A program made the position numbers and the translations under genes. Under the pieces are notes generated by a model. It was not told the origin of the DNA, ran no database searches, and saw nothing but the letters and a program-made list of their open reading frames with translations. Positions 361 to 39,616 of a DNA stretch of 64,000 nucleotides are shown here, one piece after another. The first letter of the stretch is position 1. Every line of letters starts with the position of its first letter. This DNA is from Gammaproteobacteria bacterium (GTDB lineage: Bacteria > Pseudomonadota > Gammaproteobacteria > JAKDMP01), in the NCBI GenBank assembly GCA_050739575.1, contig JBOIBN010000001.1, forward strand, positions 26,608 through 90,607, read 5' to 3'.

Positions 361-459
361 GCGCCACGGCATCACGGATCGGAATGTTATCACCGCCGCG
401 GCCGTCCCGAAAGGGCACGGCCGCTTTTTATTTGGAACCCCTTATATAAAGGAAGGGCA

Positions 460-3265: not shown

Positions 3266-3332
3266 AGGTGCGCCGGGCTGACACCCGGCGCGAGTTGGGC
3301 CGCGAGGCCCGGTTGGACACAGGAGATTTTAC

Positions 3333-3932: not shown

Positions 3933-3940
3933 GAGTCACC

Positions 3941-5625: not shown

Positions 5626-5637
5626 GGAGGCTAGACC

Positions 5638-6000
5638 GTGGCAAACAAATTATTCGGACGCGCAGTGGTGGCCTACGACGGCAACCAACTGCGCGTGGAC
5701 AAGGGCGCGAAGCTCAACACCGGCGGCATCAAGCGCAACACCGTGGTCGGGATGCAGGTCGAGGGCTTCGCCGAGGAGGCCGTCGAGGCATCCGTCGAAG
5801 TCTCCATCTTCATGGATGCGAGCACCGACCTCGACGCGCTCAACGCCGCGGAGGACGTGACCGTGCTGTTCACCGCCGACAGCGGCCAGCAGTACGTGCT
5901 CTCGCATGCGTGGCTCGCCGAACCGACCGAGGCCACGGCCGCCACCGACGGCGGCAAGGTGCCGCTGAAGTTCTGCTCGGCCAGCGCGGAGAAACTCTGA
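5638..6000 (+). CDS. Tail tube protein (Mu gpM-like)
   Basis: A 120-aa ORF directly after the sheath gene, with a GGAGG Shine-Dalgarno. Size and position match Mu M. Confidence 0.75.
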   Translation: MANKLFGRAVVAYDGNQLRVDKGAKLNTGGIKRNTVVGMQVEGFAEEAVEASVEVSIFMDASTDLDALNAAEDVTVLFTADSGQQYVLSHAWLAEPTEATAATDGGKVPLKFCSASAEKL

Positions 6001-6299
6001 TGGCGAACGTGAAGGGAACGCTCAAGCACGGGCTCAAGGTCGGCGACAAACTGCACAAGGATTACGAGCTGCGCGAGTCCACCACGCAGGACATGTTCGA
6101 TGCGGAGGCGGATGCGCCGAGCGATCGGCGCCTGGCGTTCCAGGGCGCGCTGCTCGCGCGCCAGATCGTCAAGCTCGGCGACCTCGGCGGCCCGCTCGAC
6201 TTCTCGCTGATCGGCAAGCTGCATCCGGAAGACTTCACGGATCTGATCGCCGATGCCGCCGCAGCGGATGCAGCGGGAAAAAACGCACCGGCGAGCTGA
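6001..6299 (+). CDS. Tail assembly chaperone (Mu gp41-like, lambda G-like)
   Basis: A 99-aa acidic ORF between the tube and tape measure genes. The ATG at 6001 overlaps the tube stop. It ends just after a G GGA AAA AAC slippery run. Confidence 0.7.
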
Positions 6300-6445
6300 A
6301 GGGCCTGCATCAAAAAACCCTTTTGCTCGCGCGCAAAACCGGCTGGACCCGAAGCGAGATTCTTGGGCTGTCACGTTCGGAGTTCGATTTTTATGTAGAG
6401 ACGCTGATCGAGTGGAGCACAGAGGAAGACGAATACGATGAGTGA
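6001..6445 (+). CDS. Predicted -1 frameshift fusion product of the tail assembly chaperone (G-T-like)
   Basis: Slippery heptamers G GGA AAA and A AAA AAC are in the zero frame at 6275-6284. The -1 frame runs open for 55 codons (KKRTGELKGLHQKTLLLARKTGWTRSEILGLSRSEFDFYVETLIEWSTEEDEYDE) and ends at 6445, overlapping the tape measure start. Confidence 0.55.
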
Positions 6446-8408
6446 CAGCACCCTCGATCTCGCCATGCGCATCACCGCAATAGATGTCTTCAGCGGGGTG
6501 CTGAATCGCTTCCGCACGCAGATCATGGGCGCGGGGGCGCAGTCCAAAGAATTGATGCGCGACTACGACCTCGCGCTTTCCAACATCCGCAAGGGGTTCA
6601 ACGGGCTCGCAGCCGCCAAGTACGGCTTCGACAAAATGAAGCCCGCGCTCGACAACGCTGCGAAGCTCCAGCAGGCGACGCTTGCCTTCTCGCAGATCCT
6701 GCAGGGCGCCCATCCGAACGCGAAGAAGCTCGCCGATCAAATGCAGCGCGTCAGCGACAATGCCATCAGCGTGGCGCGGCACATGAAATACAGCGCCATC
6801 GAGGTCATGGACGTCTCGCGGCTGCTCTACAAGTCCGGCATTCCGCTCGCGGCCATTCTCGACCGCGTGGGCAAAAGCGGCAAGACCATTTACGGCCTCG
6901 CCTACTACACCGAGGCGCTCGCCGAGACGCAGGGCACGACGCCGCAAGAGACGGCGGCGCAGATCGGCAACGTCGGCCATGCGTTCCGGTTGAAGCCGAA
7001 CCAATATGCGCGCGCCATCAACCTGATCACGCAGGCGCAACCGGTCGCATCCGGTTCGCTCACCGAGCTGTTCCACAATCTGGCCCAGTCGGGCGCCATT
7101 ACCAAATACCTCAGCCATACGAGCCTGCTCAGCCTGCTGGCGGGACTTAAAACGGTAGCGCCGCTTGGTGAAGAGGGGGGTACCGATTTCGCGACCATGC
7201 TGGAGACCTTCGGATCCATGCGGGTGCGCGGCAAAAAATATCTGCAAAAATATGGACTGAATTTTTACGATAAACAGGGCCAATTCCTGGGCCTCGATAA
7301 ATCGTTAGACGTGCTGCGTAAAACCATTGCGGCGCGGCACTGGACGCCAGAGCAGATAAACAAGATTTTGGGACCCATCTTCGGGCAACAGGGACTCAAG
7401 GCCATCGCGCTGATGACCGCGCCGAACGCGCCGGGAGTGAAAAGTTACCAGGAAATCAAAAAATCGATCACGGAGCAGGCCAACCTCAGTCAGCAACGGA
7501 TCGAGTGGGAGAAGGGTTACCTCGCGCAGCTTTCCGAGCTGAAGACTACGGGGCAAACGTTGAGCGCGGTGCTCGCAACGCCGGTCCTGAGCCCGACCGT
7601 CGGCGTGATGAAAACGCTGAACGACTGGATGGGCGATTTCACGCTCGCCGCCCATCATCACAAGTCCATCGGCATCGCCGCGACGGCCGCAGGGGGCGCC
7701 GCGCTTGCCGCCGCCGTCGGCTATTCGGCCTGGAATCTGATCAAAACGATAAAGCCCGGCAGCCACGTACTGCGCAGCCTGCTCGGCAAAGGCGGGGGCT
7801 TGGCCGCCCGCATCGGCGAAGGCAAGCTTATCCAAAAAGTCGCCGGGGTGCCGTCGGTCTTCGTGGTGAATATGCCCTCCGGTGGGCTTCCGGCGCCGGC
7901 CGGAGGCATCCCCCCGGGCGGCTCACGGATTTTGCTGCCGCCATCATTCGGCGAGAGAGGCGCGGCGATCGCGGCAGGCAGCATTGCCGCGCGCCTGAAG
8001 GGCTTCTTGCTGGCGCCGGCGTTGGCATCCATCAGCTCGGCAAAAGGATTGAAGGCGACCGCGGGCGCGGCCGGGAAACTCGTCGGTGCATTGGGACTCG
8101 CCGCCAGCGCCGGTTGGGCATTAGGCAAGGCGCTCGACCGCATCCCCGCCGTGCACAGTTTCTTCGACAAGGAGTTCCAGAACAGTCTGGCGAATGCAGT
8201 GATCACGGCTGCTTCCGGCGCGAACAAGAATGCGGTCGAATTGACCCGCGGCGCGCAACTGGAGCGCGCATGGCGCACGCAGCACAAGGACTTCAAGGGC
8301 GCGATCAAGATCACGATCGATAGCAAGGGCAAAGCGCATGTGACCGAGCTGCGCAGTAGCACACCGCGCGTGAACCTGAGCGTCGGCCATGCGATGAGCA
8401 CGCCGTGA
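6438..8408 (+). CDS. Tail tape measure protein
   Basis: 656 aa, helical and Gly/Ala-rich, located after the chaperone and its frameshift extension. Confidence 0.85.
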   Translation: MSDSTLDLAMRITAIDVFSGVLNRFRTQIMGAGAQSKELMRDYDLALSNIRKGFNGLAAAKYGFDKMKPALDNAAKLQQATLAFSQILQGAHPNAKKLADQMQRVSDNAISVARHMKYSAIEVMDVSRLLYKSGIPLAAILDRVGKSGKTIYGLAYYTEALAETQGTTPQETAAQIGNVGHAFRLKPNQYARAINLITQAQPVASGSLTELFHNLAQSGAITKYLSHTSLLSLLAGLKTVAPLGEEGGTDFATMLETFGSMRVRGKKYLQKYGLNFYDKQGQFLGLDKSLDVLRKTIAARHWTPEQINKILGPIFGQQGLKAIALMTAPNAPGVKSYQEIKKSITEQANLSQQRIEWEKGYLAQLSELKTTGQTLSAVLATPVLSPTVGVMKTLNDWMGDFTLAAHHHKSIGIAATAAGGAALAAAVGYSAWNLIKTIKPGSHVLRSLLGKGGGLAARIGEGKLIQKVAGVPSVFVVNMPSGGLPAPAGGIPPGGSRILLPPSFGERGAAIAAGSIAARLKGFLLAPALASISSAKGLKATAGAAGKLVGALGLAASAGWALGKALDRIPAVHSFFDKEFQNSLANAVITAASGANKNAVELTRGAQLERAWRTQHKDFKGAIKITIDSKGKAHVTELRSSTPRVNLSVGHAMSTP

Positions 8409-8410
8409 TG

Positions 8411-8749
8411 TCAGGGCGTTACGAACATCGCGCCGGTCCAGTAGGAATAGACCTGGCCTTTCGGTCTGATCTTGACGAGACGGCCGTCCGTGGTCATGTC
8501 TTCGATATAGACCGCCTCTCCCGACGTGAGCGCAACGCATTGGCCCGCGTTGACGCCTTCGGCAAGAAGCTCTTCGGCGGTCTGCTTGTCGCCCTCCGCC
8601 GCTATGGTTGCGATCTTGTCGAAAAGCGCCTGAGACTGGCATCCGGCGACGTTCGCGTTGATATGGCTCGGTCCTGTCGGAGCGGCTTGCGCGGACGTGG
8701 CCGAAGCCAGCGCCGCCAGCGCGGCTATGAAAAAGGCTTTACGCATCAT
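8411..8749 (-). CDS. Small secreted protein (signal peptide, 2 Cys), antisense moron inside the tail operon
   Basis: It exactly fills the 380-bp gap between the tape measure and N genes on the opposite strand. The Shine-Dalgarno is GAGGGGGA. The signal peptide is MMRKAFFIAALAALASATSAQA. GC3 is high, like that of its neighbours. Confidence 0.6.
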   Translation of the reverse strand: MMRKAFFIAALAALASATSAQAAPTGPSHINANVAGCQSQALFDKIATIAAEGDKQTAEELLAEGVNAGQCVALTSGEAVYIEDMTTDGRLVKIRPKGQVYSYWTGAMFVTP

Positions 8750-8787
8750 TTGAATCCCCCTCGAATGGTGGCCCGGAGCATAGCACC

Positions 8788-10029
8788 GTGAGCTGGCGCG
8801 ATCAAATGCTGCCGGGCTCCTTCCGCGGCGCGCCGTTCCTGATCAAGGTGGCGCGCACGGGCGTCGGGCGGCGCACGGAGCTGCATCAGTATCCGCTGCG
8901 CGATACGCCGTGGGCGGAGGATCTTGGGCGCCACGCGCGGAGCTTCACGGTGGAATGCTTCGTGCTCGGGGCGGACTACATGAGCCAGCGCAATGCGCTG
9001 ATGGATGCGCTCGAACAGGGCGGCGCGGGCACATTAGTGCATCCGTATCTGGGGACGAAGAGCGTCGTCGTTAACGGCAGCGCGGACATCACCGAGGACA
9101 CCGCCGAGGGCGGGATGGCGCGCTTCTCGATTCCGTTCGCTGAAAGCGGCCAGAAGCTCGAGCCGGCGGCGGCGACCGATACGGCCGGTGCGGTCGCCGA
9201 TCAGGCGTCAGCGGGCAATGCGGCGCTTGCGACGCAGTTCAGCGACGACTTCGCGACCGAAGGGTATCCGCAGTGGGTGCAGGACGCGGCGAGCGCGAAC
9301 ACGAACGAGTTGACGGACACGCTCGATTCGCTGCGGAGTTCCATTCCCGGCATTCCCGATTCCGTGGTGGCGTTCGATTCGCAGCTCGCGGAATTCAGCC
9401 AATCGCTCGCGAGCCTGATTCGCACGCCGTACAACCTGGCGGCGTCTGTGGTGAGCTTGATCGCGGGCCTCGGCACGATCGCCGAGCAGCCGCTGGATGC
9501 GGTGAATCTCTATTCCACGCTGTCGACCTGGCAACCCTCCGGACCGCTGCCGGCGGCGACGACGCCGGCGCGTGCGCAGGCGGCAGCGAACCAGCAGGCG
9601 CTGACGGATCTTGTGCAGCGCACGGCGATCATGCAGCAGGGCGCGGCTGCGTCGCGGGTGCCGGCGCAGAGCGGCACGGATACATCGGTGGACGGCACGC
9701 CGCTCGCGGGTTACGACACGGCCGATGTGGCGCTTGCCGTGCGCGATGCGATTACCGGTTCGATCGATACGCAGCAGCTCACGGCGCCCGACGCGGTATT
9801 CGATGCGCTGACGGATCTGCGCGCGGCCGTGGTGACCGACTTCGATGCGCGCGCGGGAGCGCTCCCTTCGCTGGTGACTTTCACGCCGGCGACGGATCTG
9901 CCGGCGACCGTGATCGCCTGGCGTCTGTACGCGGATGCGAGCCGCGATGCGGAGATCGTGCAGCGCAACGCCGTGGTCTATCCCGGAGCGGTGCCCGGCG
10001 GCGCGCCGCTGGAGGTGGCCAGTGCCTGA
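8788..10029 (+). CDS. DNA circulation protein (Mu gpN-like)
   Basis: 413 aa with a GTG start and GGAG Shine-Dalgarno. It sits at the Mu N position, after the tape measure and before P. Confidence 0.8.
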   Translation: MSWRDQMLPGSFRGAPFLIKVARTGVGRRTELHQYPLRDTPWAEDLGRHARSFTVECFVLGADYMSQRNALMDALEQGGAGTLVHPYLGTKSVVVNGSADITEDTAEGGMARFSIPFAESGQKLEPAAATDTAGAVADQASAGNAALATQFSDDFATEGYPQWVQDAASANTNELTDTLDSLRSSIPGIPDSVVAFDSQLAEFSQSLASLIRTPYNLAASVVSLIAGLGTIAEQPLDAVNLYSTLSTWQPSGPLPAATTPARAQAAANQQALTDLVQRTAIMQQGAAASRVPAQSGTDTSVDGTPLAGYDTADVALAVRDAITGSIDTQQLTAPDAVFDALTDLRAAVVTDFDARAGALPSLVTFTPATDLPATVIAWRLYADASRDAEIVQRNAVVYPGAVPGGAPLEVASA

Positions 10030-11062
10030 GCTGCAGCTCAAGGTCGGCGGCCAGATCTACAGCGGCTGGGAAGAGGTGCGCGTCTCGCGCGGCATAGACC
10101 AGCTTGCCGGCTCCTTCGAACTGAAACTCTCGGAGCGTTTCGACGGCACGAGCACACTGCGGCCGATCCGCTACGGCCAGAGCGCGACGGTGCTCGCCGA
10201 CGGCGAGACGGTGATGACCGGCTTCATCGATACGGTCGCGCCGGACTACGACGACACCACGCACTTCCTGAACGTGTCCGGGCGCGATGCGACCGGCGAC
10301 CTGGTGGACTGTGCGGCGATCCACAAGTCGAGCGTGTGGACGAATCAATCGCTCGCGCAGATCGCCTTCGACCTGGTGCAGCCGTTCAAGGCCGGCCTCG
10401 AGGTGATCGCCGACGTCGGCGCGCCCTTCCCGACCTGGCGGATCGAGCCGGGCGAAACCGTATTCGAAAATTTGGACCGCGCCGCGCGCTACCGCGGCGT
10501 GCTGCTGACTTCCGACGGCCTCGGCAATCTCGTGATCACGCAGCCGGGCGCGGACGTCGCACCGGCGGCGCTGGTGCTCGGCCAGAACATTCTCCGCGCC
10601 CAGGGCCATTCCAGTTCGCTCGAACGCTTCGCCGATTACATCGTGCGCGCGCAGCAGGCGGGCACCGATACGGTCTATGGCACGACTGCCGCTTCGCCGA
10701 GCGGCGAGGCGCTCGATTCCGCCGTCGGCCGCTACCGCCCGACCGTAATCGTGGCCGAGGATATGGCCGACCAGGCCGCGTGCCAGACGCGCGCCAACTG
10801 GCAGCGTACGGTCGCCGCGGCGCGTTCGCAGCAGATCGTCTATACCGTGAGCACCTGGCGTGCGGACGGACGCCTGTGGCAACCGAATGCGTTGGTGCCG
10901 GTGACCGATCCCTTCATGGGCATAGACGAGCGGCGCCTGATCTCGCGCGTTGACTTCGTGCTCGATTCGCAGGGCTCGCGCACCGAGCTGACGGTGGTGC
11001 CGCGTCACGCCTACGATCCGCAGCACCTGCCCGATCCGCCGGCGGGCGGAGGGTTGTTCTGA
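10022..11062 (+). CDS. Mu gpP-like tail/baseplate protein (phage late control D family)
   Basis: GRDATGDLVDCAAIH and RYRGVLLTSDGLGNLV align to Mu P GRDKTADLIDCAAVY and RARGVLMTSNAAGELV. The GTG start at 10022 overlaps the N stop (GTGCCTGA). Confidence 0.75.
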   Translation: MPELQLKVGGQIYSGWEEVRVSRGIDQLAGSFELKLSERFDGTSTLRPIRYGQSATVLADGETVMTGFIDTVAPDYDDTTHFLNVSGRDATGDLVDCAAIHKSSVWTNQSLAQIAFDLVQPFKAGLEVIADVGAPFPTWRIEPGETVFENLDRAARYRGVLLTSDGLGNLVITQPGADVAPAALVLGQNILRAQGHSSSLERFADYIVRAQQAGTDTVYGTTAASPSGEALDSAVGRYRPTVIVAEDMADQAACQTRANWQRTVAAARSQQIVYTVSTWRADGRLWQPNALVPVTDPFMGIDERRLISRVDFVLDSQGSRTELTVVPRHAYDPQHLPDPPAGGGLF

Positions 11063-11628
11063 TGGAACTCGCACGCGTGCTCGCGCGGCGCATCCGCATG
11101 ATCGCGGGCCGCGCCGTGATCAATCTCGCGAACGACGCGCTCAAGGTGCAGAGCGTGCAGATCTCCGCACTCGATACCGAAGTGCTGCAGGCGCAGCGCT
11201 TCCAGGAGTACGGCTTTACGTCGGTGCCGCTCGCCGGCGCCGAAGGCATCTTCCTCGCGATCGCCGGCGTGCGCGGCCACACGATCGTCATCGCGAGCGA
11301 CGACGGGCGCTATCGGCGGAAAAATCTGCAACCCGGCGAAGTCGCGCTCTACACCGACGAGGGCGATTACATTCAGCTCGCGCGCGGCAAGAAGATTCAA
11401 GTCGTGAGCGGCGGCGAGGTGGACGTGACCGGACCGAACGTGAACGTGATGGCCACGAGCAAGATCACCTGCGACACGCCGGAGCTGCACTGCACGGGCA
11501 AAATTACCGCCGCCGACGAGATCAGCTCCGACGTCGATTGCATTTCCGCCGGCGTGTCGGGCAAGGGCCATTTGACGACCGGCGTGCAGAGCGGCGGCGA
11601 CTTGTCCGGCCCTCCGGAGGCGAGCTGA
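11062..11628 (+). CDS. Baseplate assembly protein V / central spike (Mu gp45-like)
   Basis: 188-aa ORF at the position of Mu gp45, following P and preceding gp46/gp47. Confidence 0.7.
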   Translation: MELARVLARRIRMIAGRAVINLANDALKVQSVQISALDTEVLQAQRFQEYGFTSVPLAGAEGIFLAIAGVRGHTIVIASDDGRYRRKNLQPGEVALYTDEGDYIQLARGKKIQVVSGGEVDVTGPNVNVMATSKITCDTPELHCTGKITAADEISSDVDCISAGVSGKGHLTTGVQSGGDLSGPPEAS

Positions 11629-12074
11629 TGGACGCCGCATTGATCTGGAACCCGAACGGCTATGCCGACATTGCGCTTTCCGGCGGCGATCTCGCGCACG
11701 ACGACGGACTCGAAACCGCGGTGATCCTGTCGCTGTTCTGCGATGCGCGCGCCGATGCGGACGACAGCCTCGACGCCGGCGCGGATCCGCGCGGCTACTG
11801 GGGCGACAGCTTCGCAGCCATTGCGGGCGACGTGACCGGCTCGAAGCTGTGGCTGATCGTGCGCCAAAAGCAGCTTGCCGACGTCGCCAACCGCGCCCAG
11901 GAATATGCGGCGGCCGCGCTCGCATGGCTGGTCGAGGACGGCATCGCGGCGACGGTGAACGTGATCGCCGAGTGGATTGCACAGGGCACGCTCGCGCTGT
12001 CGATCGCGATCGCCAAGCCCGGATCGAACGACGTCTTTCAACGCCGTTATCAGTACGTTTGGAGCGCCCTTTAA
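11628..12074 (+). CDS. Baseplate protein (Mu gp46 / P2 W-like)
   Basis: 148 aa. The start overlaps the gp45 stop (TGATG). It is the gp46-position ORF immediately before gp47. Confidence 0.7.
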   Translation: MDAALIWNPNGYADIALSGGDLAHDDGLETAVILSLFCDARADADDSLDAGADPRGYWGDSFAAIAGDVTGSKLWLIVRQKQLADVANRAQEYAAAALAWLVEDGIAATVNVIAEWIAQGTLALSIAIAKPGSNDVFQRRYQYVWSAL

Positions 12075-13156
12075 TGCCGTTTTCACGCCCCACGCTCGCT
12101 ACGCTGATCGACCGCATCGCCGGCGACATCGAATCGCGCCTGCCCGGCTCCGACGCGCGCCTGCGCCGCAACCTGCTGACGATCCTCGGCCGCGCCGAGG
12201 CCGGTGCGACACACGGGCTCTACGGGCACCAGGAATGGATCTCGCTGCAGGTCATCATCGATACCGCCGAAAACGACTGGCTGGAGCGCTGGGCGGCGAT
12301 CTGGACGGTTGGGCGCAAGGGCGCCGGTGCCGCGCAGGGCAACCTTTTACTCACCGGCACGAACGGCGCGATCCTGCCTGCCGGCAGCAGCTATACGCGC
12401 AGCGACGGCGCGCTCTACACCACCGATGCCGATGCCACCATCGTCGCCGGTACCGCGACTGTAGCCGTGACCGCATCGCTTGCCGGCGTCGCCGGCGACA
12501 CCGATGCGAATTCCACGCTGACGCTGGTGTCGTCCGTGACCGGCATCGATGCGGCGGCGACGGTGGATGCGGACGGCATCGAGGGCGGCGCGGACATCGA
12601 GGACGACGATTCGCTGCGCGTGCGCCTGCTCGATCGCATCGGCGCTCCGCCGACCGGCGGCAGCGATCCCGATTACGTGGCGTGGGCGGAAGAAGTCGCC
12701 GGCGTCACCCGCGCCTGGGTGTATCCGAAAGAGCAAGGCCCCGGCACGGTGGTGGTGCGCTTCGTGACCGACGACGCGCCGGGCGGCTTGATTCCCGACG
12801 ATGCGACCGTGCAGGCGGTCGCCGCCAGCATCGTCGCCAAGCGCACGGTGACGGCGGACGTGTTCGTGTTCGCGCCGATCGCCGATCCGCTCGATCTGAC
12901 CATTCAACTGGTTCCCGACACTATCGCGGTGCGCGCGGCCGTCACCGCCGAGATTGCCGACATGATTCTGCGCGAGGCCATCCCGGCCGGGACGCTCAAT
13001 GGCAGTGTGCAGGTCGGCGAGATCATCCGCAGCCACATTGACGAGGCGATCTCCATCGCTGACGGTGAGACCGATCACACGTTGCTGGTGCCGACCGCGA
13101 ACGTGCAGCCGGCCATCGGCCACATCGTGACGCTGGGAACGATCACATGGGCCTGA
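12074..13156 (+). CDS. Baseplate J-like protein (Mu gp47)
   Basis: 360-aa ORF whose length and position (after gp46, before gp48) match Mu gp47. Confidence 0.8.
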   Translation: MPFSRPTLATLIDRIAGDIESRLPGSDARLRRNLLTILGRAEAGATHGLYGHQEWISLQVIIDTAENDWLERWAAIWTVGRKGAGAAQGNLLLTGTNGAILPAGSSYTRSDGALYTTDADATIVAGTATVAVTASLAGVAGDTDANSTLTLVSSVTGIDAAATVDADGIEGGADIEDDDSLRVRLLDRIGAPPTGGSDPDYVAWAEEVAGVTRAWVYPKEQGPGTVVVRFVTDDAPGGLIPDDATVQAVAASIVAKRTVTADVFVFAPIADPLDLTIQLVPDTIAVRAAVTAEIADMILREAIPAGTLNGSVQVGEIIRSHIDEAISIADGETDHTLLVPTANVQPAIGHIVTLGTITWA

Positions 13157-15669
13157 GCGCGGATACCTACGCCGCCACCGAACGTGCGCTGCTGCCGCCC
13201 GGCCGCGCGCTCGCCGATGGCGGCGAAGGCACGCTCACGGATCTGCTCGAGGCGCTCGCCCAGGAATTCTCGCGCGTGGATGCGAGCGGCGACGTGCTGC
13301 TGCAGGAAGCCTTCCCCGACACCGCCGTCGAGCTGCTTCCGGATTGGGAGCGCATCGCCAAACTGCCGTCCGCCTGCACGCCGGCCGGCCAGACGACGGC
13401 GCAGCGGCAGGCGTCGGTGGTGCGCAAACTCACGGCCAACGAAGCGCAGACGATTGCGTTCATCGTTGCACTCGCCGCGTCCTACGGCTATACGATCTCG
13501 ATCGTGGAGCGCCGGGCGCTGCGCTTCGGCTACAACGCCTATTGCGGCTACCCGTTCGGAAGCTGGGACTGGCAATTCGTGTGGGAGGCGCACAGCGAAG
13601 GCACGCCGATCGAAATGCTGTATTTCGACACGGGCCATTGCGGCGACGATTTCGGCGCCTTCGGCGATCCGACGATGGAGTGCCGCCTGAAGACCGGCAA
13701 CCAGAGCCACATCATTCCGCGCTTCTGCTACGACTTCACCGGCTACAACCTGTTCCAGTATCGCGACATCGGTCGGCTGTTCTGGATCGGCCGCGCCGGA
13801 TCTCTGTTCCAGGATACTGCCGGCACGGTGCCCGTCACTGCCTACGGCCAGACCGTGGGCTTGATTAAAGACCTCTCAGGTCACGGCGGCGATCTCATGC
13901 TCACGGTCGGGCCGGGCGCCGTGTACTCGCAGGACGAGAACGGCTACGACTGCCTGGTGAGCGCGGGCGATTCGATGTACAGCGGCTCCGATGCCGATCT
14001 GCCGATGGGCGCGAACAACGTCCACATTGCCGCCACGGTGGCCTTCGATCAGTTCACCAAAAACGCGAGCTGCTTCAACTACGGCACCAGCGCGATCCTC
14101 GAAGAGCGCGGCATCGGTCTCGACAATTCGACGCCGCAGAAAATGACCGCGAATATCTACAACGTCCAGGCCGACGGCCAGTCGCCGATCGCAGGCCAGC
14201 CTTACGTGATGGAGTGCGATGTGCTCTACCACACGGTCAGCCTGTATATCGACGGAGTCTTCGAGAGCAGCGCCACCGGCGTCGTCAATACGGTCAGCGG
14301 CGCACTCACGCTGTTCGGTTCGGCGTTGCCGGGAAAACTGTTTACCGGAAAGTTTTACGGCGGCGTGATCTTCGGTGGGAGTTCCTGGCCGCGCGCGGCC
14401 GTGACGCGCTGGCTCGGAGCGCTCGCGGGACAGACGTTTCCCGGCTATGACCTGCTGCTGCTCGACCAGGCTTTCGCGCGCAGCTCTCAGGCGACGTGGA
14501 CGGACCCGGCCGGGATCCTCCAGACGGCGAGCGCCAATGCGGCCCGCTATAACAATGATCGCGACACCGGCGAGGCTTACGGACTGCTGATCGAGGAGCC
14601 GCGTACCAATCAGATTACCGATCCGTTCAATCCGACGACGTCGAATTGGGTGCAGACCAATGCGGCCGCGGCGCTCGCCCAGGGCACAGGCCCCGACGGT
14701 TCCAATTCGCTCATCAAGCTCACGACCGATGTCGTCGCGACCGTCGAACCGCACATGTACAACATCACCTGCCTGATCCCGGACCCCGCGCCCGACGTCA
14801 TCAGCGTTCTGACGTGGGTGCAGCGCGGCAACTACGACAACGGTGCGTCGCCGACGATCCGGATGCATTCCAAACAGACGCCGGCGCCTGGAGCGGGCAC
14901 GCCGGTCGATGTGAGCGCGCGTATTCTGCAAGGCCCCGGCAGCGTAGATATCGCCGACTTTGACGCCGGGCTGGTGCAGGTATACGGGCTGTCGCAGACC
15001 GAACCCACGTTGATCGAAACACGCACGATGATTCCCTTGATCGCTGGTCAGACCTACATCCTCACCTGCCGCAACCGCGATCAGGCCATCGGCGCCCAGG
15101 TGGGCGACACCACCTTTTGGTACGCCCAGCAGTTCGAGTTCGCCGATTTCGCGAGCACGTTGATTCCGAGCGGCGTCGCCACGCGGCCCGGCGACGATGT
15201 CGCCATTCCCCCGACTTGGGCGGCGACCGAAGCCGGGTGCCTGTGGGGCGAATTCCGCGTCCGGAATCTGCCGCCGAATCCGTATCCGACATCTTCGGGC
15301 ATCGTTGCAGCACTGGCATACACGGCCGCGAACACCTTCATCGGAGTCAATGTGGATTCCAACGGCCAGTTGATTATTACCGGCCGTCTTGCCGGCAGCG
15401 CTTATCAGCAGGCTTATACGCCGAACGGAAGCATTGTCGCGGGGCAGAGCTACAAATTCGCCGCGTCCTGGTCCCCGACCGCGTTTCGCCTTTCGCTCAA
15501 CGGTGCGGCCGTGATCAGCGCTGCGCAAACGCAAGCGCTGCCGACCGCGCCCAGCCAGTTCTTCGTCGGTTCGATTTCCGGCACCTATTACCTCAACGGC
15601 ACCGTGCGTTCGCTGCGCTATGCCCCTTTCGCGCCCGCCAACGCGCAGCTGCAGGCGCTCGCTTCGTGA
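13147..15669 (+). CDS. Mu gp48-like (DUF2313) N-terminal domain fused to a long tail-fibre / receptor-binding region with two concanavalin/LamG-like segments
   Basis: The first ~190 aa match Mu gp48. The protein then continues for ~650 aa with LYIDG and LNGTVRSL lectin-like signatures. It is 840 aa in total. Confidence 0.65.
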   Translation: MGLSADTYAATERALLPPGRALADGGEGTLTDLLEALAQEFSRVDASGDVLLQEAFPDTAVELLPDWERIAKLPSACTPAGQTTAQRQASVVRKLTANEAQTIAFIVALAASYGYTISIVERRALRFGYNAYCGYPFGSWDWQFVWEAHSEGTPIEMLYFDTGHCGDDFGAFGDPTMECRLKTGNQSHIIPRFCYDFTGYNLFQYRDIGRLFWIGRAGSLFQDTAGTVPVTAYGQTVGLIKDLSGHGGDLMLTVGPGAVYSQDENGYDCLVSAGDSMYSGSDADLPMGANNVHIAATVAFDQFTKNASCFNYGTSAILEERGIGLDNSTPQKMTANIYNVQADGQSPIAGQPYVMECDVLYHTVSLYIDGVFESSATGVVNTVSGALTLFGSALPGKLFTGKFYGGVIFGGSSWPRAAVTRWLGALAGQTFPGYDLLLLDQAFARSSQATWTDPAGILQTASANAARYNNDRDTGEAYGLLIEEPRTNQITDPFNPTTSNWVQTNAAAALAQGTGPDGSNSLIKLTTDVVATVEPHMYNITCLIPDPAPDVISVLTWVQRGNYDNGASPTIRMHSKQTPAPGAGTPVDVSARILQGPGSVDIADFDAGLVQVYGLSQTEPTLIETRTMIPLIAGQTYILTCRNRDQAIGAQVGDTTFWYAQQFEFADFASTLIPSGVATRPGDDVAIPPTWAATEAGCLWGEFRVRNLPPNPYPTSSGIVAALAYTAANTFIGVNVDSNGQLIITGRLAGSAYQQAYTPNGSIVAGQSYKFAASWSPTAFRLSLNGAAVISAAQTQALPTAPSQFFVGSISGTYYLNGTVRSLRYAPFAPANAQLQALAS

Positions 15670-15687
15670 ACATCATAGGAGATCATC

Positions 15688-16218
15688 GTGGACTATCCAG
15701 TATCTGATGACACCGTCGGCCTGGTGGCCGGCAAATTCAGCGACGGCGATCCGACCAGCGGCATCCCCGCATCGCGCTGGCCCTCGGAAACGGCGGACGC
15801 CATCATGGACGAGCTGATCGCCGTTATCGTGCAGGGCGGCCTCACGCCCGCCGAAGCGACGCTCACGCAGGTGCGCGACGCGATTCTCGCGATCGTCACC
15901 GCGGCACTGGGTACCGCAATTCCCAAGGACAAGTTCAATGCGACGGCCGATCCGGTCGTGACCAACGACAGCAGTCAGGGCTACAGCGAAGGCTCGCGCT
16001 GGTTCAACACGACGACGCCGGACGTGTTCGTGTGCATCAATCCTGCTGTCGGTGCCGCGGTGTGGCTGAAGTCCACGCTCGAACTCGCGGATCTCGCGAA
16101 CTTCGCCGTTAAAAATGCCGACAACGAATTCAGCGCGGGCCAGAGCGTGACCGGCAATCTCACGATTGACGGCAACATCTACTCGACCGGCGTGGTCCAG
16201 GCCGGTGTGACGCTGTGA
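15688..16218 (+). CDS. Putative tail fibre-associated protein
   Basis: 176-aa ORF directly after the gp48-fibre fusion gene. The sequence NLTIDGNIYSTGVVQ is fibre-like. GGAG precedes the GTG start. Confidence 0.4.
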   Translation: MDYPVSDDTVGLVAGKFSDGDPTSGIPASRWPSETADAIMDELIAVIVQGGLTPAEATLTQVRDAILAIVTAALGTAIPKDKFNATADPVVTNDSSQGYSEGSRWFNTTTPDVFVCINPAVGAAVWLKSTLELADLANFAVKNADNEFSAGQSVTGNLTIDGNIYSTGVVQAGVTL

Positions 16219-17198
16219 GCCTTGCCGCGCAAAAGTTCATAGACGCGCTCGGCTTCGACGTGGCTGATATCTTCGAGCCGTGGGAATCGGGCGATCCGCA
16301 TGCGGCCGACACCGGTTTCCAGAACGCGGCCGGCGACGATCTGTCCGCCGTGCTCGCACCGCTTTCGGTCGGCTCCGCGATCGATCACGACACCATGTTC
16401 CAGAACGGCGCCGGCACCGACCTGAACGCGATCTTCGCGAAGAAGGGCTCGCGCAGCGGATCGGCGATCAGCGCGACAATTCCCTCGACCGCGAACGCCG
16501 TCACCCATGCGCCCGGCGGTACGGCGAGCGCGGACCTGACCTGCGTCCCCGCCGGCGGCTCCGGAACGGGCTACACGTTCTTGTGGACCGTCGTGAGCGG
16601 CAGCGCGACGATCACCAATGCGACCTCGCCGACCTGCACCGTGCAGGAAGCGGTGCCCGGTACCGGTTCCATCACGAGCACCTTCAAGTGCCATGTCGTG
16701 GATTCCGCCAGCAATTCCTGCGACAGCAACAACGGCGTCGTTACATTCAAATATGTCGCCGTCGGCGGCAGCGATTGCCTGCGGCTCGATCAATGGCTCG
16801 CGCCCACGGTGCAGGTGCGCGACGCCCACAAGGGGATGTTGCTCGATGCGCGCACCGACGCCGACGAATTCTGCCGGCTGCCGATCGTGAACGATCCGAC
16901 CATCATCCTGCAGCTCTGCTACCGGCTCATCGCGGCCAACGGATACGCGATCGAGTGCACCGTGAGCACGCCATTCACACTTCCCGACGGAGAAAGCTAT
17001 CCGGCGCCGCGGATGCTCGGCCGGATGTTGCTCTGTCACGAAACCCGTGAATGGTCGCCGATCGTGACCGTCCAGTCATTGGGACGCTGCGCGGCCATGC
17101 TCATCAGCCTGGGCGGCGCGAGCTATGCCGGCGGCGACGAGCCGAACAAGCGCAGCTATTCCCACAACACCCGCAAGTTTGGACCCATCTCACCGTAA
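16215..17198 (+). CDS. Hypothetical tail fibre-region protein (Cys-rich, Ig-like segments)
   Basis: 327 aa. The start overlaps the upstream stop. It lies within the fibre module. Confidence 0.4.
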   Translation: MSLAAQKFIDALGFDVADIFEPWESGDPHAADTGFQNAAGDDLSAVLAPLSVGSAIDHDTMFQNGAGTDLNAIFAKKGSRSGSAISATIPSTANAVTHAPGGTASADLTCVPAGGSGTGYTFLWTVVSGSATITNATSPTCTVQEAVPGTGSITSTFKCHVVDSASNSCDSNNGVVTFKYVAVGGSDCLRLDQWLAPTVQVRDAHKGMLLDARTDADEFCRLPIVNDPTIILQLCYRLIAANGYAIECTVSTPFTLPDGESYPAPRMLGRMLLCHETREWSPIVTVQSLGRCAAMLISLGGASYAGGDEPNKRSYSHNTRKFGPISP

Positions 17199-17213
17199 AT
17201 CAGGAGAACCTCG

Positions 17214-17654
17214 ATGCTCGCCTTTAACAAGTTCAACGCCTTCGTACTTGCCGTCGCGACGAAAAAGATCGATCTCAATGCAGACACGCTCAAGATCATG
17301 CTCACGGATACGGCGTCGGTGGTGACCAATTCCGTCAAGACCGACATCACCGAAATATCCGCCGGCAACGGCTACAGCGCCGGCGGCGCTGCCGTCGGAA
17401 GCAATTCCGCCTCGCAGACCTCCGGCACCATGAAGGTGGTCGGCGACGCCGTGACCTTCACCGCCAGCGGCGGCGCGATCGCGCAGTTCCGCTACCTGGT
17501 GCTTTACGACGATACCGCCGCGAGCAAGGATCTGATCGGTTGGTGGGACAACGGCAGTGAAGTCAATCTCGGCGACGGCTCGAGCTTCACGCTCGGCGAC
17601 GATTTCAGCGGGGATAACTGGGATGCCACGACGCCGCTCTTTACGCTGGCGTAA
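17214..17654 (+). CDS. Hypothetical small beta-rich tail-region protein
   Basis: 146 aa, with an AGGAGA Shine-Dalgarno 6 nt upstream. Confidence 0.4.
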   Translation: MLAFNKFNAFVLAVATKKIDLNADTLKIMLTDTASVVTNSVKTDITEISAGNGYSAGGAAVGSNSASQTSGTMKVVGDAVTFTASGGAIAQFRYLVLYDDTAASKDLIGWWDNGSEVNLGDGSSFTLGDDFSGDNWDATTPLFTLA

Positions 17655-17663
17655 CGCACGACG

Positions 17664-19214
17664 ATGAGTGCCCCGACCCCGGTCCAGTCGAAATCGAATC
17701 AAAGCTCCAGCGCGGCAACGCTGGGCATCGTCTTCGATGCGGCGCCGGGGGTCGGAAACATCCTGATCGCGCAGGTGAATTTCGTCGGTACCGGCGCATC
17801 CGATCCAGCCGTCGCGCCGGACGGCACCTGGTACCCGCTCCTGAGCGGTTTGAATTACGGCACCATCTCCGGGTACAACGGTTGGCAGGATATCTGGTAT
17901 CACGAAGTCGAGAGCGGCGAAGCCAATTCCTACACCTTCGGCATCGGCGCCGCGACGCCGACCATATGGTCGGTGGTCGTGGACGAGTATTCCGGAGTGG
18001 ATGTCGCGAGCGTGCTCGACGTTGCGACAGTCCTCACGGCCACCGGCAACGGCAAGACGTTCGCCGCTCCGGCCAACACGACGCTCGACGCCAATGCCCT
18101 CGTGCTATTTTGCAACGTCTATTACGACGGAGCCAATCAGGTGTACACCGCGCCGTCCGGCTATTCGCAAGACGGCCTGAACTCGGTCGCGGGCGCCAAA
18201 AATGCAATTTGTTCGATCGCTCAAGCGACCGCAGGTGGGACGGGCACTCCCTCGGCTTCGATCAACGGATCCGTAAACAAGCTGTGGGGAGTCGCGCTGC
18301 TGGCCTTGAAGGCGAGTACCGCCGCACACGATTATGCGGCGGCCGCCGGAGCGTCTTACGCCCTCACCGGCGCCGCTGGCGGCACTGTGCAACGCATCGC
18401 AGCGGCCGGCGCGAGCGTGGCGCTTGCGGGTGCATCCGCCGGATCGGCTCAACGCAGCGGTGCAGCCGGCGGCGTATTCGTCGCTGGCGGCGCGGACGCC
18501 GGCATTGTGCTGCATTGGCTCATTGCCGGCGCCGGCGCCGCGTTCGCCGGAGCGGGCTCTCCTGCAGGTACCGCCCGGCGCGCGGGCGCTGCGGGTACAG
18601 CGTTTGCGCTGGCCGGTGCGGATGCTGCAGGCGCGCGGCGCAGCGGTGCAGCCGGCGGCGTGTTCGCATGGAGCGGTGCGCAGGCGACGATGCGGCTGCA
18701 CCTGTTCGTTGCGGGAGCCGGCGCGACTTTCAACTGGGTCGGTGCAGGTGCCTTCGGCACGGGCGTTCAGCGTTATTTCGGTGCGGCTTCCGGTGCCACA
18801 TTCGCGATCGCTGGCGCCCACGCCGTGATCGTCCTGCATTGGCACATCGCCGGTGCGGGTGCCGTTTTCGTCGCCAATGGCGCCGCTGCCGGGAGCGCGC
18901 AACATCGCGCCGCGGCCGGGGCGGACATGACGCTTGCGGGGAGCGCTGCAGCTTCAGCGCGGCGCGTCGGTGCGGCCGGCCCCGCATTCTCCACACAAGG
19001 CGCGGCGGCCGGATGGGTGGTGCGACTTTACGTCGCTGGCGCCGGGGCCGATTTCGAATGGCTGGGCGCGCCGGCCGGAACTCTTTTCAGCGGGCGCCGC
19101 GACTATCACGCGGTCACCGCGGTGGATCGCTCGCCGCGCTACGCGCTCTCGATGCAGCCCGGCATTCAAAGCGCCATTAACGGCGGCATTAAAGCCGTCT
19201 TCATCGAGGATTGA
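17664..19214 (+). CDS. Tail-region protein with ~12 tandem ~21-residue Ala/Gly repeats (AGAGAxF...)
   Basis: The N-terminal 220 aa are unique. They are followed by repeats such as AAGGVFVAGGADAGIVLHWLI and AGAGAAFAGAGSPAGTARRAG. Confidence 0.5.
   Translation: MSAPTPVQSKSNQSSSAATLGIVFDAAPGVGNILIAQVNFVGTGASDPAVAPDGTWYPLLSGLNYGTISGYNGWQDIWYHEVESGEANSYTFGIGAATPTIWSVVVDEYSGVDVASVLDVATVLTATGNGKTFAAPANTTLDANALVLFCNVYYDGANQVYTAPSGYSQDGLNSVAGAKNAICSIAQATAGGTGTPSASINGSVNKLWGVALLALKASTAAHDYAAAAGASYALTGAAGGTVQRIAAAGASVALAGASAGSAQRSGAAGGVFVAGGADAGIVLHWLIAGAGAAFAGAGSPAGTARRAGAAGTAFALAGADAAGARRSGAAGGVFAWSGAQATMRLHLFVAGAGATFNWVGAGAFGTGVQRYFGAASGATFAIAGAHAVIVLHWHIAGAGAVFVANGAAAGSAQHRAAAGADMTLAGSAAASARRVGAAGPAFSTQGAAAGWVVRLYVAGAGADFEWLGAPAGTLFSGRRDYHAVTAVDRSPRYALSMQPGIQSAINGGIKAVFIED
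18340..19080 (+). repeat. Degenerate 63-bp tandem repeat array (~12 units) inside the 17664..19214 gene
   Basis: Repeated gcngccggngcngg...ttcg... units are visible in the DNA and as 21-aa units in the protein. Confidence 0.6.
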
Positions 19215-19516
19215 ACGTGGCCACCATCTACATCGGCCGAGACAATCCGTTCAAATTGCAGGCGTCGGAAGACGGCGCCTCGATCGACCTGAGCGGCGTC
19301 ACCAAGATGGCGGTACGCGTCGGTGCAGCCGATACCGATTCCGATGCGAATCCGATACTCTTCGACTGGAGCGCCGGCGACGGCGTCGTCAGCATAATCG
19401 TCGGGCTCGTCCCCCAATTGAGCGCAGGCGCGAAACGGCTGCGTCTCATCGCCTATTCAGACGCATGGCCCGATGGGATCGTGCTGGGCGATCTTCCCGT
19501 CGATGTCACCGCGTGA
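19211..19516 (+). CDS. Hypothetical protein (101 aa)
   Basis: The ORF overlaps the upstream stop. The start codon is uncertain (TTG or GTG). Confidence 0.3.
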   Translation: MNVATIYIGRDNPFKLQASEDGASIDLSGVTKMAVRVGAADTDSDANPILFDWSAGDGVVSIIVGLVPQLSAGAKRLRLIAYSDAWPDGIVLGDLPVDVTA

Positions 19517-19544
19517 TTGGCCTCATCAACTTTGGAGCATCCCC

Positions 19545-20678
19545 ATGAATACCCTAAAATCCATCGGCTGCGCGATACTCAAAATTTTCGGGCATCCGTG
19601 TACGCAACCGCCGATGCCTTCCGCATTGCCGCGCCAACGCGGCGTCGTTTGCGTGTTCGGCGGCGCCGGCGGTGTCCAGCCGGGGATGCTGCAAACGCTG
19701 CGCGATACGTTCGGGCCGAACTGCAACAGCGTGCGGCTGTATCTTCACCTAAAGAATGTCGCCGCTGCCGCCAAGATCACGCTCGCCGGAGCCGAGCAGC
19801 TCGCTTATGCCTGGGCGGACGCAATGCTCGACGAGGCTTCGAAGCTCGGCATGAATTGCTGGATTCACCGCCGCTACTTCTACATGCCGGACGGCACGCT
19901 GATTGATCGCACGAGTCCGGACTTCTGGAACAATGTGAACGGCCAATTCGACCAGGCGCTCTCGCAGGTCACGGCAATGGCCACGCACTTCCACGCCCAC
20001 GGTGCGGAACTGGCGGGCTACGACATCATCAGCGAGCCCGTCGCGATCGTGAACGGCGTGGACCAAGTGCCGCCGGGCTATCTCGCGCGCCAGATCCAGA
20101 TCCTCGACGCGCTCGACAGCGGCGATGCCGCGCTCACGTCGAAGAACGGCACGCGCTACGCGATCGCCAAATTCGCCCCGTGGGCCGGTGCGGTCGGCTA
20201 TGCTGGCCAGCAGCCTGTTCCCGGCTTCCCGCGTCTCGTTTACGGCGTCCACTTCTACCAACCCAGGCCGTCCGTCTATGCGGGCGTCGAGAAACCCTAC
20301 GGCTTCCCCGGTCCCGGCTGGCCGTGCACGATTGGCACGACGGCATGGAATGCGGCCGAGTTGCAGAAGGTGTTGCAGCCGGCTCTCGACTTCGGGTCCA
20401 CCTACGGCGTGCGCATGAGTCTGAGCGAGTTCAGCTACGCCCGCTGGAGCGCCGGCGGCGAGCAGTGGCTGAGCGACCTCATCGGCATCGTCGAAGCCGC
20501 CGGCTGGGACTGGAACTATTTCATGGTCGGCGCCGCGCCTGGCGTGGTCGCTCAATGCTGGGCGGCCGAATACGATGCCTCCTTCACCCCGGCCGCCTTC
20601 GGCCTTCCGGGCGAAGTCGGCATCGGCGCATCGCCGCGCGGCAAAGCCCTAGCCAGCATTTTCCAGGCCATCAAGTAA
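19545..20678 (+). CDS. Glycoside hydrolase family 5-like protein (cellulase superfamily), last gene of the element
   Basis: GGAGCA lies 6 nt upstream of the ATG. The candidate acid/base Glu is in YDIISEP (GH5 NEP position). The candidate nucleophile Glu is in MSLSEFSY. VHFY lies between them. Confidence 0.45.
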   Translation: MNTLKSIGCAILKIFGHPCTQPPMPSALPRQRGVVCVFGGAGGVQPGMLQTLRDTFGPNCNSVRLYLHLKNVAAAAKITLAGAEQLAYAWADAMLDEASKLGMNCWIHRRYFYMPDGTLIDRTSPDFWNNVNGQFDQALSQVTAMATHFHAHGAELAGYDIISEPVAIVNGVDQVPPGYLARQIQILDALDSGDAALTSKNGTRYAIAKFAPWAGAVGYAGQQPVPGFPRLVYGVHFYQPRPSVYAGVEKPYGFPGPGWPCTIGTTAWNAAELQKVLQPALDFGSTYGVRMSLSEFSYARWSAGGEQWLSDLIGIVEAAGWDWNYFMVGAAPGVVAQCWAAEYDASFTPAAFGLPGEVGIGASPRGKALASIFQAIK

Positions 20679-20689
20679 GGAGAGCGGCC

Positions 20690-20941
20690 GAACGTTGTTT
20701 GCGCAACGTCTTCGCCGGCCTGGCGATGGAAAGTATCCCGATCCGGTACACGGTGGGCGGCGGCGCCGGCGTCGAACGCCAGGAACTGATCATCCGTTCG
20801 CGCCCCGACGGCTGGACCGGTCAGGGGCGCCTTTTATGACCCTTTACAGGCCTATAATTCGTCGTTCAGGGGTCGCCGCCTGCCGTGAAATTTCTTCGCA
20901 AACCAAGTGATCCAGATTCGCAAACCAAGTGAACGCTTACA
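20690..20941 (+). repeat. Mu-type right end (attR): three transposase-binding repeats, two direct and one inverted, with a terminal ...CA
   Basis: TTCGCAAACCAAGTGA occurs at 20895-20910 and again at 20917-20932. An inverted copy, CGTTGTTTGCGCAACG, lies at ~20690-20706. The reverse complement of the terminus, TGTAAGCGTTCACTTGGTTTGCGAA, resembles the Mu L1 site TGTATTGATTCACTTGAAGTACGAAAA. Confidence 0.6.
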
Positions 20942-21100
20942 CCTCCGATTTATTCAGAGGTTCCGTGTGGTGCATGGACGCACCACCGTGAATCGAACGC
21001 GTAAGTGCTTGATTCGGCGTAAGACGAGTCCGGGCATGTGCCGGACTCATCGCCTCTGAGCAATTCACGGATGAATTGATCAGAGTTTCCTAAGACTGCT
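20942..21100 (+). repeat. Intergenic ~160-bp repeat element, copy A, abutting the prophage end and upstream of liuB
   Basis: About 85% identical to copy B. It contains the hairpin GTCCGGGCATGTGCCGGAC and the palindrome CTCTGAGCAATTCACGGATGAATTGATCAGAG. Confidence 0.6.
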
Positions 21101-21157
21101 GCGGCGGATAATCGTGGCGCTACCCGCCATAATAGGCAGCGCACAGAGGAGGCCGTC

Positions 21158-22768
21158 ATGCCGACCCTTAAGTCCACGATAGACCGCAGCGGCAAAGACT
21201 TCGCCGCCAACCGTCGGAAAATGGAAGCGCTGGCCGGGGATCTGCGCGAGACGCTCGCCAAAACGGCACTCGGCGGCAGTGAGCGCGCGCGCAAAAAGCA
21301 TACCGACCGCGGCAAACTTCTGCCGCGTGACCGCATCGAGGCGCTGCTCGATCCCGGCTCGCCCTTCCTCGAACTCTCCCCGCTCGCCGCGCACGGCATG
21401 TACGAAGATGCGGCGCCGGCCGCCGGGCTCGTTGCCGGAATCGGTCGCGTTCATGGACGCGAGGTGATGGTGGTGGCAAACGATGCCACCGTGAAGGGCG
21501 GTACTTATTACCCGATTACGGTGAAGAAGCATTTACGCGCACAGGAAGTGGCGCTTGAAAACCGCCTCCCCTGCATTTATCTCGTGGATTCCGGCGGCGC
21601 CTTCCTGCCGCTGCAGGACGAGGTGTTTCCGGACAAGGAACATTTCGGCCGCATCTTCTACAATCAGGCGCGTCTCTCGCGCGAGCGCATTCCGCAGATC
21701 GCAGTGGTCATGGGTTCCTGCACCGCCGGCGGTGCCTACGTACCGGCGATGTGCGACGAGGCCATCATCGTGCGCAATCAGGGCACGATCTTTCTCGGTG
21801 GCCCGCCGCTGGTGAAGGCGGCGACCGGCGAAGTGGTGGACGCGGAGACACTCGGCGGCGGCGACGTGCACAGCAAGATTTCCGGCGTCACCGACTATCT
21901 GGCAGAGAACGATGCGCACGCCTTGCAGATCGCACGCGACATCGTCGCGCATCTCAATTACCAACGCCCGTCCTGGCTCGCCAAGAACGAACCGATGGAA
22001 CCACGCTACGCGGCGGACGAACTCTACGGCATCGTGCCGCAGGAAACGCGCTTCCCCTACGACGCACACGAAATCATCGCGCGCCTCACGGACGGCTCCG
22101 AGTTTCAAGAGTTCAAGGCCAACTACGGCAAGACGCTCGTCACCGGTTTCGCGCACCTGTATGGCTACCCGGTCGGCATCGTCGCCAACAACGGCATCCT
22201 GTTTTCAGAATCCGCCCTCAAGGGCGCGCACTTCATCGAACTGTGCGAACAGCGGCGCATTCCTCTCGTGTTTCTGCAGAACATCACCGGCTTCATGGTC
22301 GGGCAGAAATACGAAGCCGGCGGCATCGCCAAGGACGGCGCGAAGATGGTCACGGCCGTCGCCTGCGCGACGGTGCCGAAGTTCACCGTCATCATAGGCG
22401 GCAGCTTCGGCGCCGGTAACTACGCCATGTGCGGTCGTGCCTACGGCGCGCGTTTCCTGTGGATGTGGCCCAACGCGCGCATCAGCGTGATGGGCGGCGA
22501 ACAGGCCTCTTCGGTGCTCGCCACAATCAAGCGCGATGGCATCGAAGCCAAAGGCGGCAAATGGAGCGGCAAGGAAGAAGAGGAATTCAAAACGCCCCTA
22601 CGCGAACAGTACGAAACCCAGGGCCATCCTTACTACGCCTCGGCACGCCTGTGGGACGACGGCATCATTGATCCCGTCGACACTCGCCGTGTACTTGGCC
22701 TCGCCCTCGCCGTTGCCGAAAACGCGCCGCTCGAACCCGGCAGTCGTTACGGCGTCTTCCGCATGTGA
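21158..22768 (+). CDS. liuB: Methylcrotonyl-CoA carboxylase carboxyltransferase (beta) subunit
   Basis: 535-aa acyl-CoA carboxyltransferase, followed by a hydratase, a biotin carboxylase alpha subunit and HMG-CoA lyase (leucine catabolism). Confidence 0.8.
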
Positions 22769-39606: not shown

Positions 39607-39616
39607 CGAAAATCGC

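Follow-up and report, generated by a model that had tools for sequence, protein, structure and literature searches.

Gene content of the locus

The window, i.e., the whole stretch of 64,000 nucleotides that was analyzed, consists of phage DNA at positions 1-20941, in which all genes are encoded on the + strand, and of host DNA beyond this point (Table 1). The transposase shares 35% identity with Mu A along 94% of its length. Its residues D277, D342 and E394 are invariant in an alignment of 24 homologues and would be the equivalents of Mu D269, D336 and E392. The tail module encodes a DUF2635 protein, the sheath, the tube, a gp41-like chaperone, the tape measure and the DNA-circularisation protein N and, further on, gpP, gp45, gp46, baseplate J, a gp48-like protein and fibre-like ORFs. 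The gp48-like baseplate protein (13147-15669) is unusually long with 840 aa and carries a C-terminal Laminin_G_3 domain. The GH5-like ORF occupies the position that is taken by the Dam gene in relatives, and the Dam remnant behind it shares 53% identity with residues 246-277 of the protein of the relative L005 (295 aa; Pfam MethyltransfD12).

Ahead of the ner-like gene, a sigma-70-like promoter is present (TTGACT at 32-37, N16, TATACT at 54-59). Three CCGCATGA(A/G)TA repeats at 20-30, 63-73 and 75-85 overlap the start of the ner-like gene, and these look like operators of the repressor or of Ner. Around the right end, within 20600-21200, neither a sigma-70-like promoter nor an intrinsic terminator was found. 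The exact transposase was found on two contigs (one MAG), i.e., a single organism carries the element, and an exact-protein look-up of the Ner-like protein returned no identical entry. A scan of genome contigs with MuA gave one weak relative, and a single-protein viral scan gave one partial relative.

Table 1. Features of the prophage and of its junction with the host sequence; positions refer to the window, L001 is the overlapping contig stretch that contains the left end.
Feature	Position	Strand	Basis or remark
124-aa repressor-like gene	left-end region of L001	-	sequence match
Ner-like early regulator, HTH_35	67-360	+	Pfam
CII-like protein	460-945	+	sequence match
MuA-type DDE transposase, 672 aa	942-2960	+	Pfam HTH_Tnp_Mu_1, HTH_Tnp_Mu_2, DDE_2, Mu-transpos_C
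Chimeric ORF, MuB N-terminus plus tail-completion C-terminus	3333-3932	+	joint near nt 3680
Mu-type contractile tail module, no head genes	3941-19214	+	Pfam and other profile matches
401-aa ORF with weak GH5/cellulase-like match, last intact gene	19473-20678	+	E = 0.0033, below Pfam cut-off
Claimed inverted R3, AACGTTGTTTGCGCA	20691-20705	+	rejected as chance match
Remnant of D12-class Dam DNA methyltransferase, C-terminal ~45 residues	20699-20839	+	homology to L005
R2, 15-mer identical to R1, same orientation	20895-20909	-	nt 33-47 from terminus; 22-bp period
R1, terminal transposase-type site, CACTTGGTTTGCGAA read inward	20917-20931	-	nt 11-25 from terminus; exact repeat
Terminal decamer, TGTAAGCGTT read inward	20932-20941	-	+ strand ends ...CTTACA-3'; cleavage-type CA at 20940-20941
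Right copy of 8-bp flanking direct repeat, CCTCCGAT	20942-20949		first 5 bp are CCTCC
Host intergenic repeat, copy A	20942-21089	+	starts at 20941/20942; ~150 nt, several hairpins

The right end of the element

The 16-mer TTCGCAAACCAAGTGA, which had been noticed from the sequence alone as a pair 22 bp apart, has exactly two copies in the 64-kb window, one at 20895-20910 and one at 20917-20932, and the start-to-start distance of 22 bp is confirmed. Beyond the pair the right end reads ...GAACGCTTACA, with CA at 20940-20941, and then CCTCC follows at 20942-20946. On a weight matrix built from 19 family sites, on which real sites score 21-27 bits, R1 and R2 reach 26.8 bits each, compared with a best score of 12.9 in 43 kb of host sequence. 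The register of R1 is the same in nine related right ends and in R1 of Mu. The claim of a Mu-type right end made in the sequence-only reading is borne out as far as the two direct transposase-type sites and the terminal CA are concerned.

The same reading had added an inverted third site, R3, to the direct R1/R2 pair, and this part of the geometry fails. The candidate matches 11 of 15 core positions and scores 7.6 bits, compared with 21-27 bits for real sites; seven host positions score as well, so that about 0.07 hits as good as this one are expected per 400-nt end on both strands. It is located 237 nt from the terminus, in contrast to the inverted R3 of Mu at about 53-78 nt, and it straddles the junction between the 3' flank of the GH5-like gene and the Dam remnant, thereby overlapping the latter. 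The site is not conserved either: when four related right ends were scanned with this threshold, no inverted site turned up near this position in any of them, their sole inverted match being at position 357 of L027. Beside R2, at the position equivalent to Mu R3, the scan gave no third site, and within 400 nt of the right terminus it gave no inverted site above background. The inverted R3 may be peculiar to Mu and need not be a mark of the family at large.

Related right ends were retrieved from nine independent IMG/VR contigs by pattern scans. Read inward, all nine consist of a decamer and two 15-nt sites CACTTGGTTTGnnnn that are separated by 7 nt; the first site starts exactly 10 nt in, and the decamer begins with TGTA in eight of the nine and with TGTAAG in six. 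Directly after the terminal ...TTACA the sequences diverge in the three relatives examined, continuing with ACGGC in L005, GTGCT in L003 and CCCCC in L028, compared with CCTCC in the window. The right end itself holds nothing surprising and belongs to an environmental Mu-like phage clade with a well-conserved end signature, TGTAAG-N4-CACTTGGTTTG-N4-N7-CACTTGGTTTG, which is usable to find the boundaries of such phages.

Two of the retrieved ends show peculiarities of their own. On L129 (128-170; IMGVR_UViG_3300037608_000093) the paired sites stand in the usual register and the decamer begins with TATCAG, not TGTAAG, which is reminiscent of the non-canonical TA ends in transposable prophages of Leptospira (PMC8705779). 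On L027 (90-135; IMGVR_UViG_3300048592_000358) an inverted copy of the terminal octamer lies 10 bp outside the right end, ACGCTTACA-N10-TGTAAGCG, and may go back to a palindrome in the target or to an end fragment that adjoins. A scan with the sheath protein, aimed at the question of whether the 22-kb IMG/VR contig that has the closest right end is head-less too, did not retrieve this contig.

The left end and the flanking repeat

The left end was found on L001, a stretch of a MAG contig from GCA_974167825.1 that encodes the exact transposase. L001 is 100% identical to window 1-12960 (12,960 nt) and reaches 4,695 nt further upstream. The thiolase gene ends at L001 3877 and is followed by GGAACCTCCGAT and then by the left end TCTTAGGGGG-CAGATGGTTTGCGAA, the terminus of which lies 805 bp upstream of the window start. 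The terminal site (nt 11-25) scores 21.3 bits and the other strong site, CACTTGGTTTGTGAA (nt 169-183), 25.7 bits, and a degenerate candidate site is present at nt 119-133. The second strong site sits 158 bp further in than the terminal site, which corresponds to a Mu-like L1/gap/L3 arrangement. A left end with related repeats, which the sequence-only reading had expected upstream, is therefore present, and the lack of such repeats, named there as a refutation, does not apply. The whole element spans from L001 3890 to window 20941 and comprises 21,747 bp. A scan of JGI metagenomes with a left-end 24-mer gave no match and no second copy of the element.

The register of the left end is fixed by the left ends of five relatives that align colinearly with it, i.e., TGTGCAGTGA-CTCTTGG... 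in L029, TGTGAGGGGA-CAC... in L030 and L064 and TGAAGGGCTT-CTCTTGG... in L114/L115. As L114 and L115 contain the same phage at two different sites, their terminus is pinned at TG. The terminal dinucleotide is TG in all five relatives compared, whereas the element has TC.

CCTCC had been proposed as a 5-bp target-site duplication. It is indeed found on both flanks, but the left copy sits 3 bp outside the left terminus as defined by homology, so that the flanking repeat is the 8-bp sequence CCTCCGAT, the left copy of which occupies L001 3882-3889, about 813 bp ahead of the window start. The pentamers that abut the termini differ (CCGAT left vs CCTCC right). Counting one base of the element on each side, the flanking repeat grows to 10 bp (L001 3882-3891 and window 20940-20949). 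IMGVR_UViG_3300041991_000132, for which both ends were available (L064 and L003), shows a perfect 5-bp duplication, GTGCT, in agreement with the 5-bp stagger of Mu strand transfer (PMC3325207) and with the rule of 5/6-bp duplications for transposable phages (PMC3325207, PMC8705779). For the 8-bp repeat, an aberrant stagger at a structured target remains an option, and so do a 5-bp duplication plus three nucleotides kept from a flap, the agreement of which with the target would be accidental (about 1/64 per side), and a later rearrangement.

The host repeat and the insertion locus

Copy A of the host repeat has an 86% identical counterpart in copy B (52399-52547) and a partial one in copy C (62459-62526), and the copies begin directly after stop codons. 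Copy B reads TTAAGGAACCTCTGATTTATTCAGAGATTCC right behind a stop codon. At the left junction of the element TAAGGAACCTCCGAT is retained, i.e., the first 12-15 nt of the repeat, and the right flank goes on with CCTCCGATTTATTCAGAGGTTCC. Joining the left junction to the right flank and comparing them with copy B yields the hairpin GGAACCTCCGA-TTTAT-TCAGAGGTTCC as pre-insertion site, and the 5' hairpin of an intact copy A would read TAAGGAACCTCCGA-TTTAT-TCAGAGGTTCC. The reconstructed hairpin has a folding energy of -7.6 kcal/mol (z = -3.3), that of copy B -8.9 kcal/mol (z = -5.4). Since TAAGGAACCTCCGAT remains on the far side of the prophage, the insertion is placed inside the first hairpin of the repeat, in its 5' arm or loop. 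The earlier placement of the insertion at the 5' edge of a host repeat is correct in that the element adjoins the repeat, but it has to be corrected in that the insertion lies inside the first hairpin, with 12-15 nt left on the opposite side. The 3' half of copy A matches Rfam RF01740 (gyrA RNA) with 31.4 bits, which is below the cut-off of 45, and copies B and C gave no match against Rfam at E <= 1.

Upstream of the element, genes for Leu dehydrogenase, isovaleryl-CoA dehydrogenase and thiolase are encoded, and downstream of 20941 the gene for methylcrotonyl-CoA carboxylase beta is the first of the leucine-catabolism genes. The genes that follow were assigned from ORF positions and from synteny with relatives as putative enoyl-CoA hydratase, carboxylase alpha and HMG-CoA lyase. 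In L117, the carboxylase beta of which is 89% identical, thiolase and carboxylase beta are adjacent with a spacer of 73 bp, whereas they are 21.7 kb apart here, and the syntenic site in L117 contains neither the prophage nor the host repeat. The predicted empty site GCTTTAAGGAACCTCCGATTTATTCAGAGG (spanning sequence TAAGGAACCTCCGATTTATTCAGAGG) gave no match in a scan of JGI metagenomes, and an exact-protein look-up of carboxylase beta returned no identical entry. The MuA homologue P0004 (58%) and the carboxylase-beta homologue P0165 (86%) are each found on a 164,137-nt contig, plausibly one and the same, which would then represent a related host with a related complete Mu-like prophage.

Further features were observed in the host part of the window. 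Two tRNA genes are located at 49098-49170 (+) and 53471-53541 (-), both found with Rfam at the gathering threshold. A 1146-aa ORF (39566-43006) contains at least six tandem coding repeats (41120-42197) of about 162-174 nt, belonging to families D1-D3, and probably encodes a repeat-rich surface or secreted protein.

The internal deletion

The chimeric ORF joins parts of two phage genes. Over residues 12-117 it shares 55% identity with the same residues of MuB from L030 (318 aa; phrog_296). This MuB part stops at ...VYGGA where the MuB of the relative reads ...IYGAAGVGKT, i.e., just before the GVGKT nucleotide-binding motif. Residues 116-198 correspond to the C-terminus of a late tail-completion protein (phrog_490). 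The counterparts of the two halves are 18 kb apart in phage B23. Beside A, a complete MuB of 311-320 aa is encoded in all relatives with the four closest MuA homologues (58-64%); early genes, among them Gam and GemA, come next and then Mor, holin and gp27/portal. The element has no MuB ATPase, terminase, portal, capsid, Mor or holin and has kept the tail genes, and with its 21,747 bp it compares with genomes of about 36-39 kb for transposable phages (PMC8705779).

The chimeric ORF marks a deletion of roughly 17-18 kb, by which the MuB ATPase and the early, Mor, lysis and head genes were lost. That the element is a 21.7-kb deletion derivative without MuB and all head genes had been missed from the sequence alone. 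The chimeric ORF, the truncated Dam gene and the TC terminus together indicate a decaying and, at present, most probably immobile prophage. The head-less remnant of transposase plus tail, the flanking repeat of 8 bp and the TC terminus are small curiosities and do not amount to discoveries.

Interpretation and alternative explanations

We interpret 20895-20941 as the right-hand attachment end of a transposable prophage of the Mu family, now a defective relic with an internal deletion, and we assign a probability of about 0.85 to this reading. The phage inserted between thiolase and methylcrotonyl-CoA carboxylase beta, in the first hairpin of the host repeat. By analogy with Mu, R1 and R2 would bind the end-binding (I-beta/gamma) domain of the MuA-type transposase, which is encoded near the left end, and, together with the left-end sites, would build the transpososome, in which the DNA would be nicked at the terminal CA and joined to the target. 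Later decay comprised the deletion, the loss of most of Dam and a left terminal dinucleotide of TC instead of TG. The right end is now most likely structurally intact but functionally stranded, as its partner end and the accessory functions do not look intact.

An alternative is an intact and transposition-competent Mu-like prophage with the direct R1 and R2, the inverted R3 and the 5-bp duplication of CCTCC that had been read from the sequence alone. Some elements of this picture are real, as R1, R2 and the terminal CA exist, CCTCC stands on both flanks, the transposase is full-length with its three acidic residues in invariant columns and the tail ORFs are without obvious frameshifts. It is nevertheless very improbable and largely refuted by the gene content, given a MuB that is truncated before the ATPase motifs and the lack of all head, lysis and late-activator genes. 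The element measures 21.7 kb, whole transposable phages about 36-39 kb (PMC8705779). Further points against it are the position of the left CCTCC, 3 bp beyond the terminus, the left terminal dinucleotide (TC and not TG) and R3, which is at chance level and unconserved. Extremely unlikely is the view that the paired 16-mers arose by chance or form a tandem repeat with a regulatory role, e.g., an operator or iteron, and only happen to lie near the prophage boundary. Although 8 of 100 shuffled sequences gave at least two matches at up to three mismatches, the two copies in the window are exact with a period of 22 bp, such a pair recurs in the same register to the terminus in nine unrelated contigs (TGTA in eight of the nine) and in Mu, and related sites are present at the other end of the element, 21.7 kb away.

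A different kind of explanation is that a Mu-derived tail cluster without head genes was kept for its function, in the manner of a tailocin, and is transcribed from the early promoter, the ends being relics. Pseudomonas syringae offers a precedent, as its R-type syringacins are co-opted Mu-like tails. The tail module is contiguous and apparently intact from the sheath to the fibres, head genes are absent and through the in-frame deletion the tail genes follow immediately on ner, A and the remaining part of B. This explanation is considered quite unlikely, as neither a lysis cassette nor a Mor/C-type late activator is present, both of which relatives carry in the deleted interval, the tail-completion protein is cut to its C-terminal ~83 residues, and the element is found in one genome only, with scans of JGI metagenomes giving no match. 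A more far-reaching variant assumes an incipient transposon-borne tailocin with a transposase that is catalytically intact, with both ends retained and with the complete tail module under the early promoter; separately from this, the 8-bp repeat at a hairpin could reflect a non-canonical stagger in strand transfer by a transposase of the MuA family. Both proposals appear improbable.

For the preferred reading, a relic of a Mu-family prophage, the main value of the result is for annotation, as the exact right boundary (20941) of the defective Mu-like prophage is now fixed. The TC left terminus and the 8-bp repeat at a hairpin are small leads on how Mu-type insertions at structured targets form or decay.

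Comparison with known systems

The resemblance to Mu L1 that had been claimed from the sequence alone holds: L1 of Mu reads TGTATTGATT CACTTGAAGTACGAA and the window end reads inward TGTAAGCGTT CACTTGGTTTGCGAA, which are identical at 17 of 25 positions without gaps. The right end of E. coli phage Mu, written in the same register, is TGAAGCGGCG CACGAAAAACGCGAA AGCGTTT CACGATAAATGCGAA. Both Mu and the element have direct sites at nt 11-25 and 33-47, each of the form CAC...CGAA and with a period of 22 bp, and at the left end of both a terminal site is followed by others about 110-170 nt further in. They also share the gene order repressor (-), ner, A and then B, of which the element retains only the N-terminus, and the tail genes of the Mu type (gp41, N, P and gp45-48 families). 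In contrast to Mu, which has an inverted R3 beside R2 at about nt 53-78, no such site is detectable in the element; the core of its sites is TTGGTTTGCGAA, whereas that of Mu is A-rich; and its flanking repeat has 8 bp instead of 5 bp. Of the TG...CA logic of Mu, the element agrees in the CA of the right end and differs in the TC of the left terminus. MuB and the head genes, present in Mu, are deleted, and the neighbour of the right end is the Dam remnant in the element and com/mom in Mu.

B3, D3112 and BcepMu are transposable phages as well. B3 and BcepMu begin with TG, and their terminal sites are paired in much the same register; B3 makes 6-bp duplications (PMC8705779). The site sequences of all three are unrelated to those of the element. 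Aligned with their ends, as the sequence-only reading had suggested, the window end matches at 7-10 of 25 positions, which is background, and Mu itself turned out to be the informative comparison. The transposase of the window is likewise closer to Mu A than to the transposases of the Pseudomonas phages.

A further likeness is found to uncultured Mu-like phages and prophages of Gammaproteobacteria, among them IMGVR_UViG_3300041991_000132, IMGVR_UViG_3300027921_000091 and the contigs carrying P0002, P0004 and P0006. Their right ends are 19-23/25 identical to the window end with the same layout, and their left ends are colinear with that of the element, with TGTGAGGGGA-CAC... followed by a GCGGGA-rich spacer. 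The identity of their MuA to the transposase of the window is 58-64% for P0002, P0004 and P0006 and about 40% for IMGVR_UViG_3300041991_000132. In L003, L005 and L028 (IMG/VR) a Dam gene lies just inside the right end. These relatives start with TG and keep the full MuB, the early region, Mor and the lysis and head genes. The element in turn resembles defective or "grounded" Mu-like prophages, e.g., remnants of the FluMu type, which likewise keep their ends and some modules after internal deletions.
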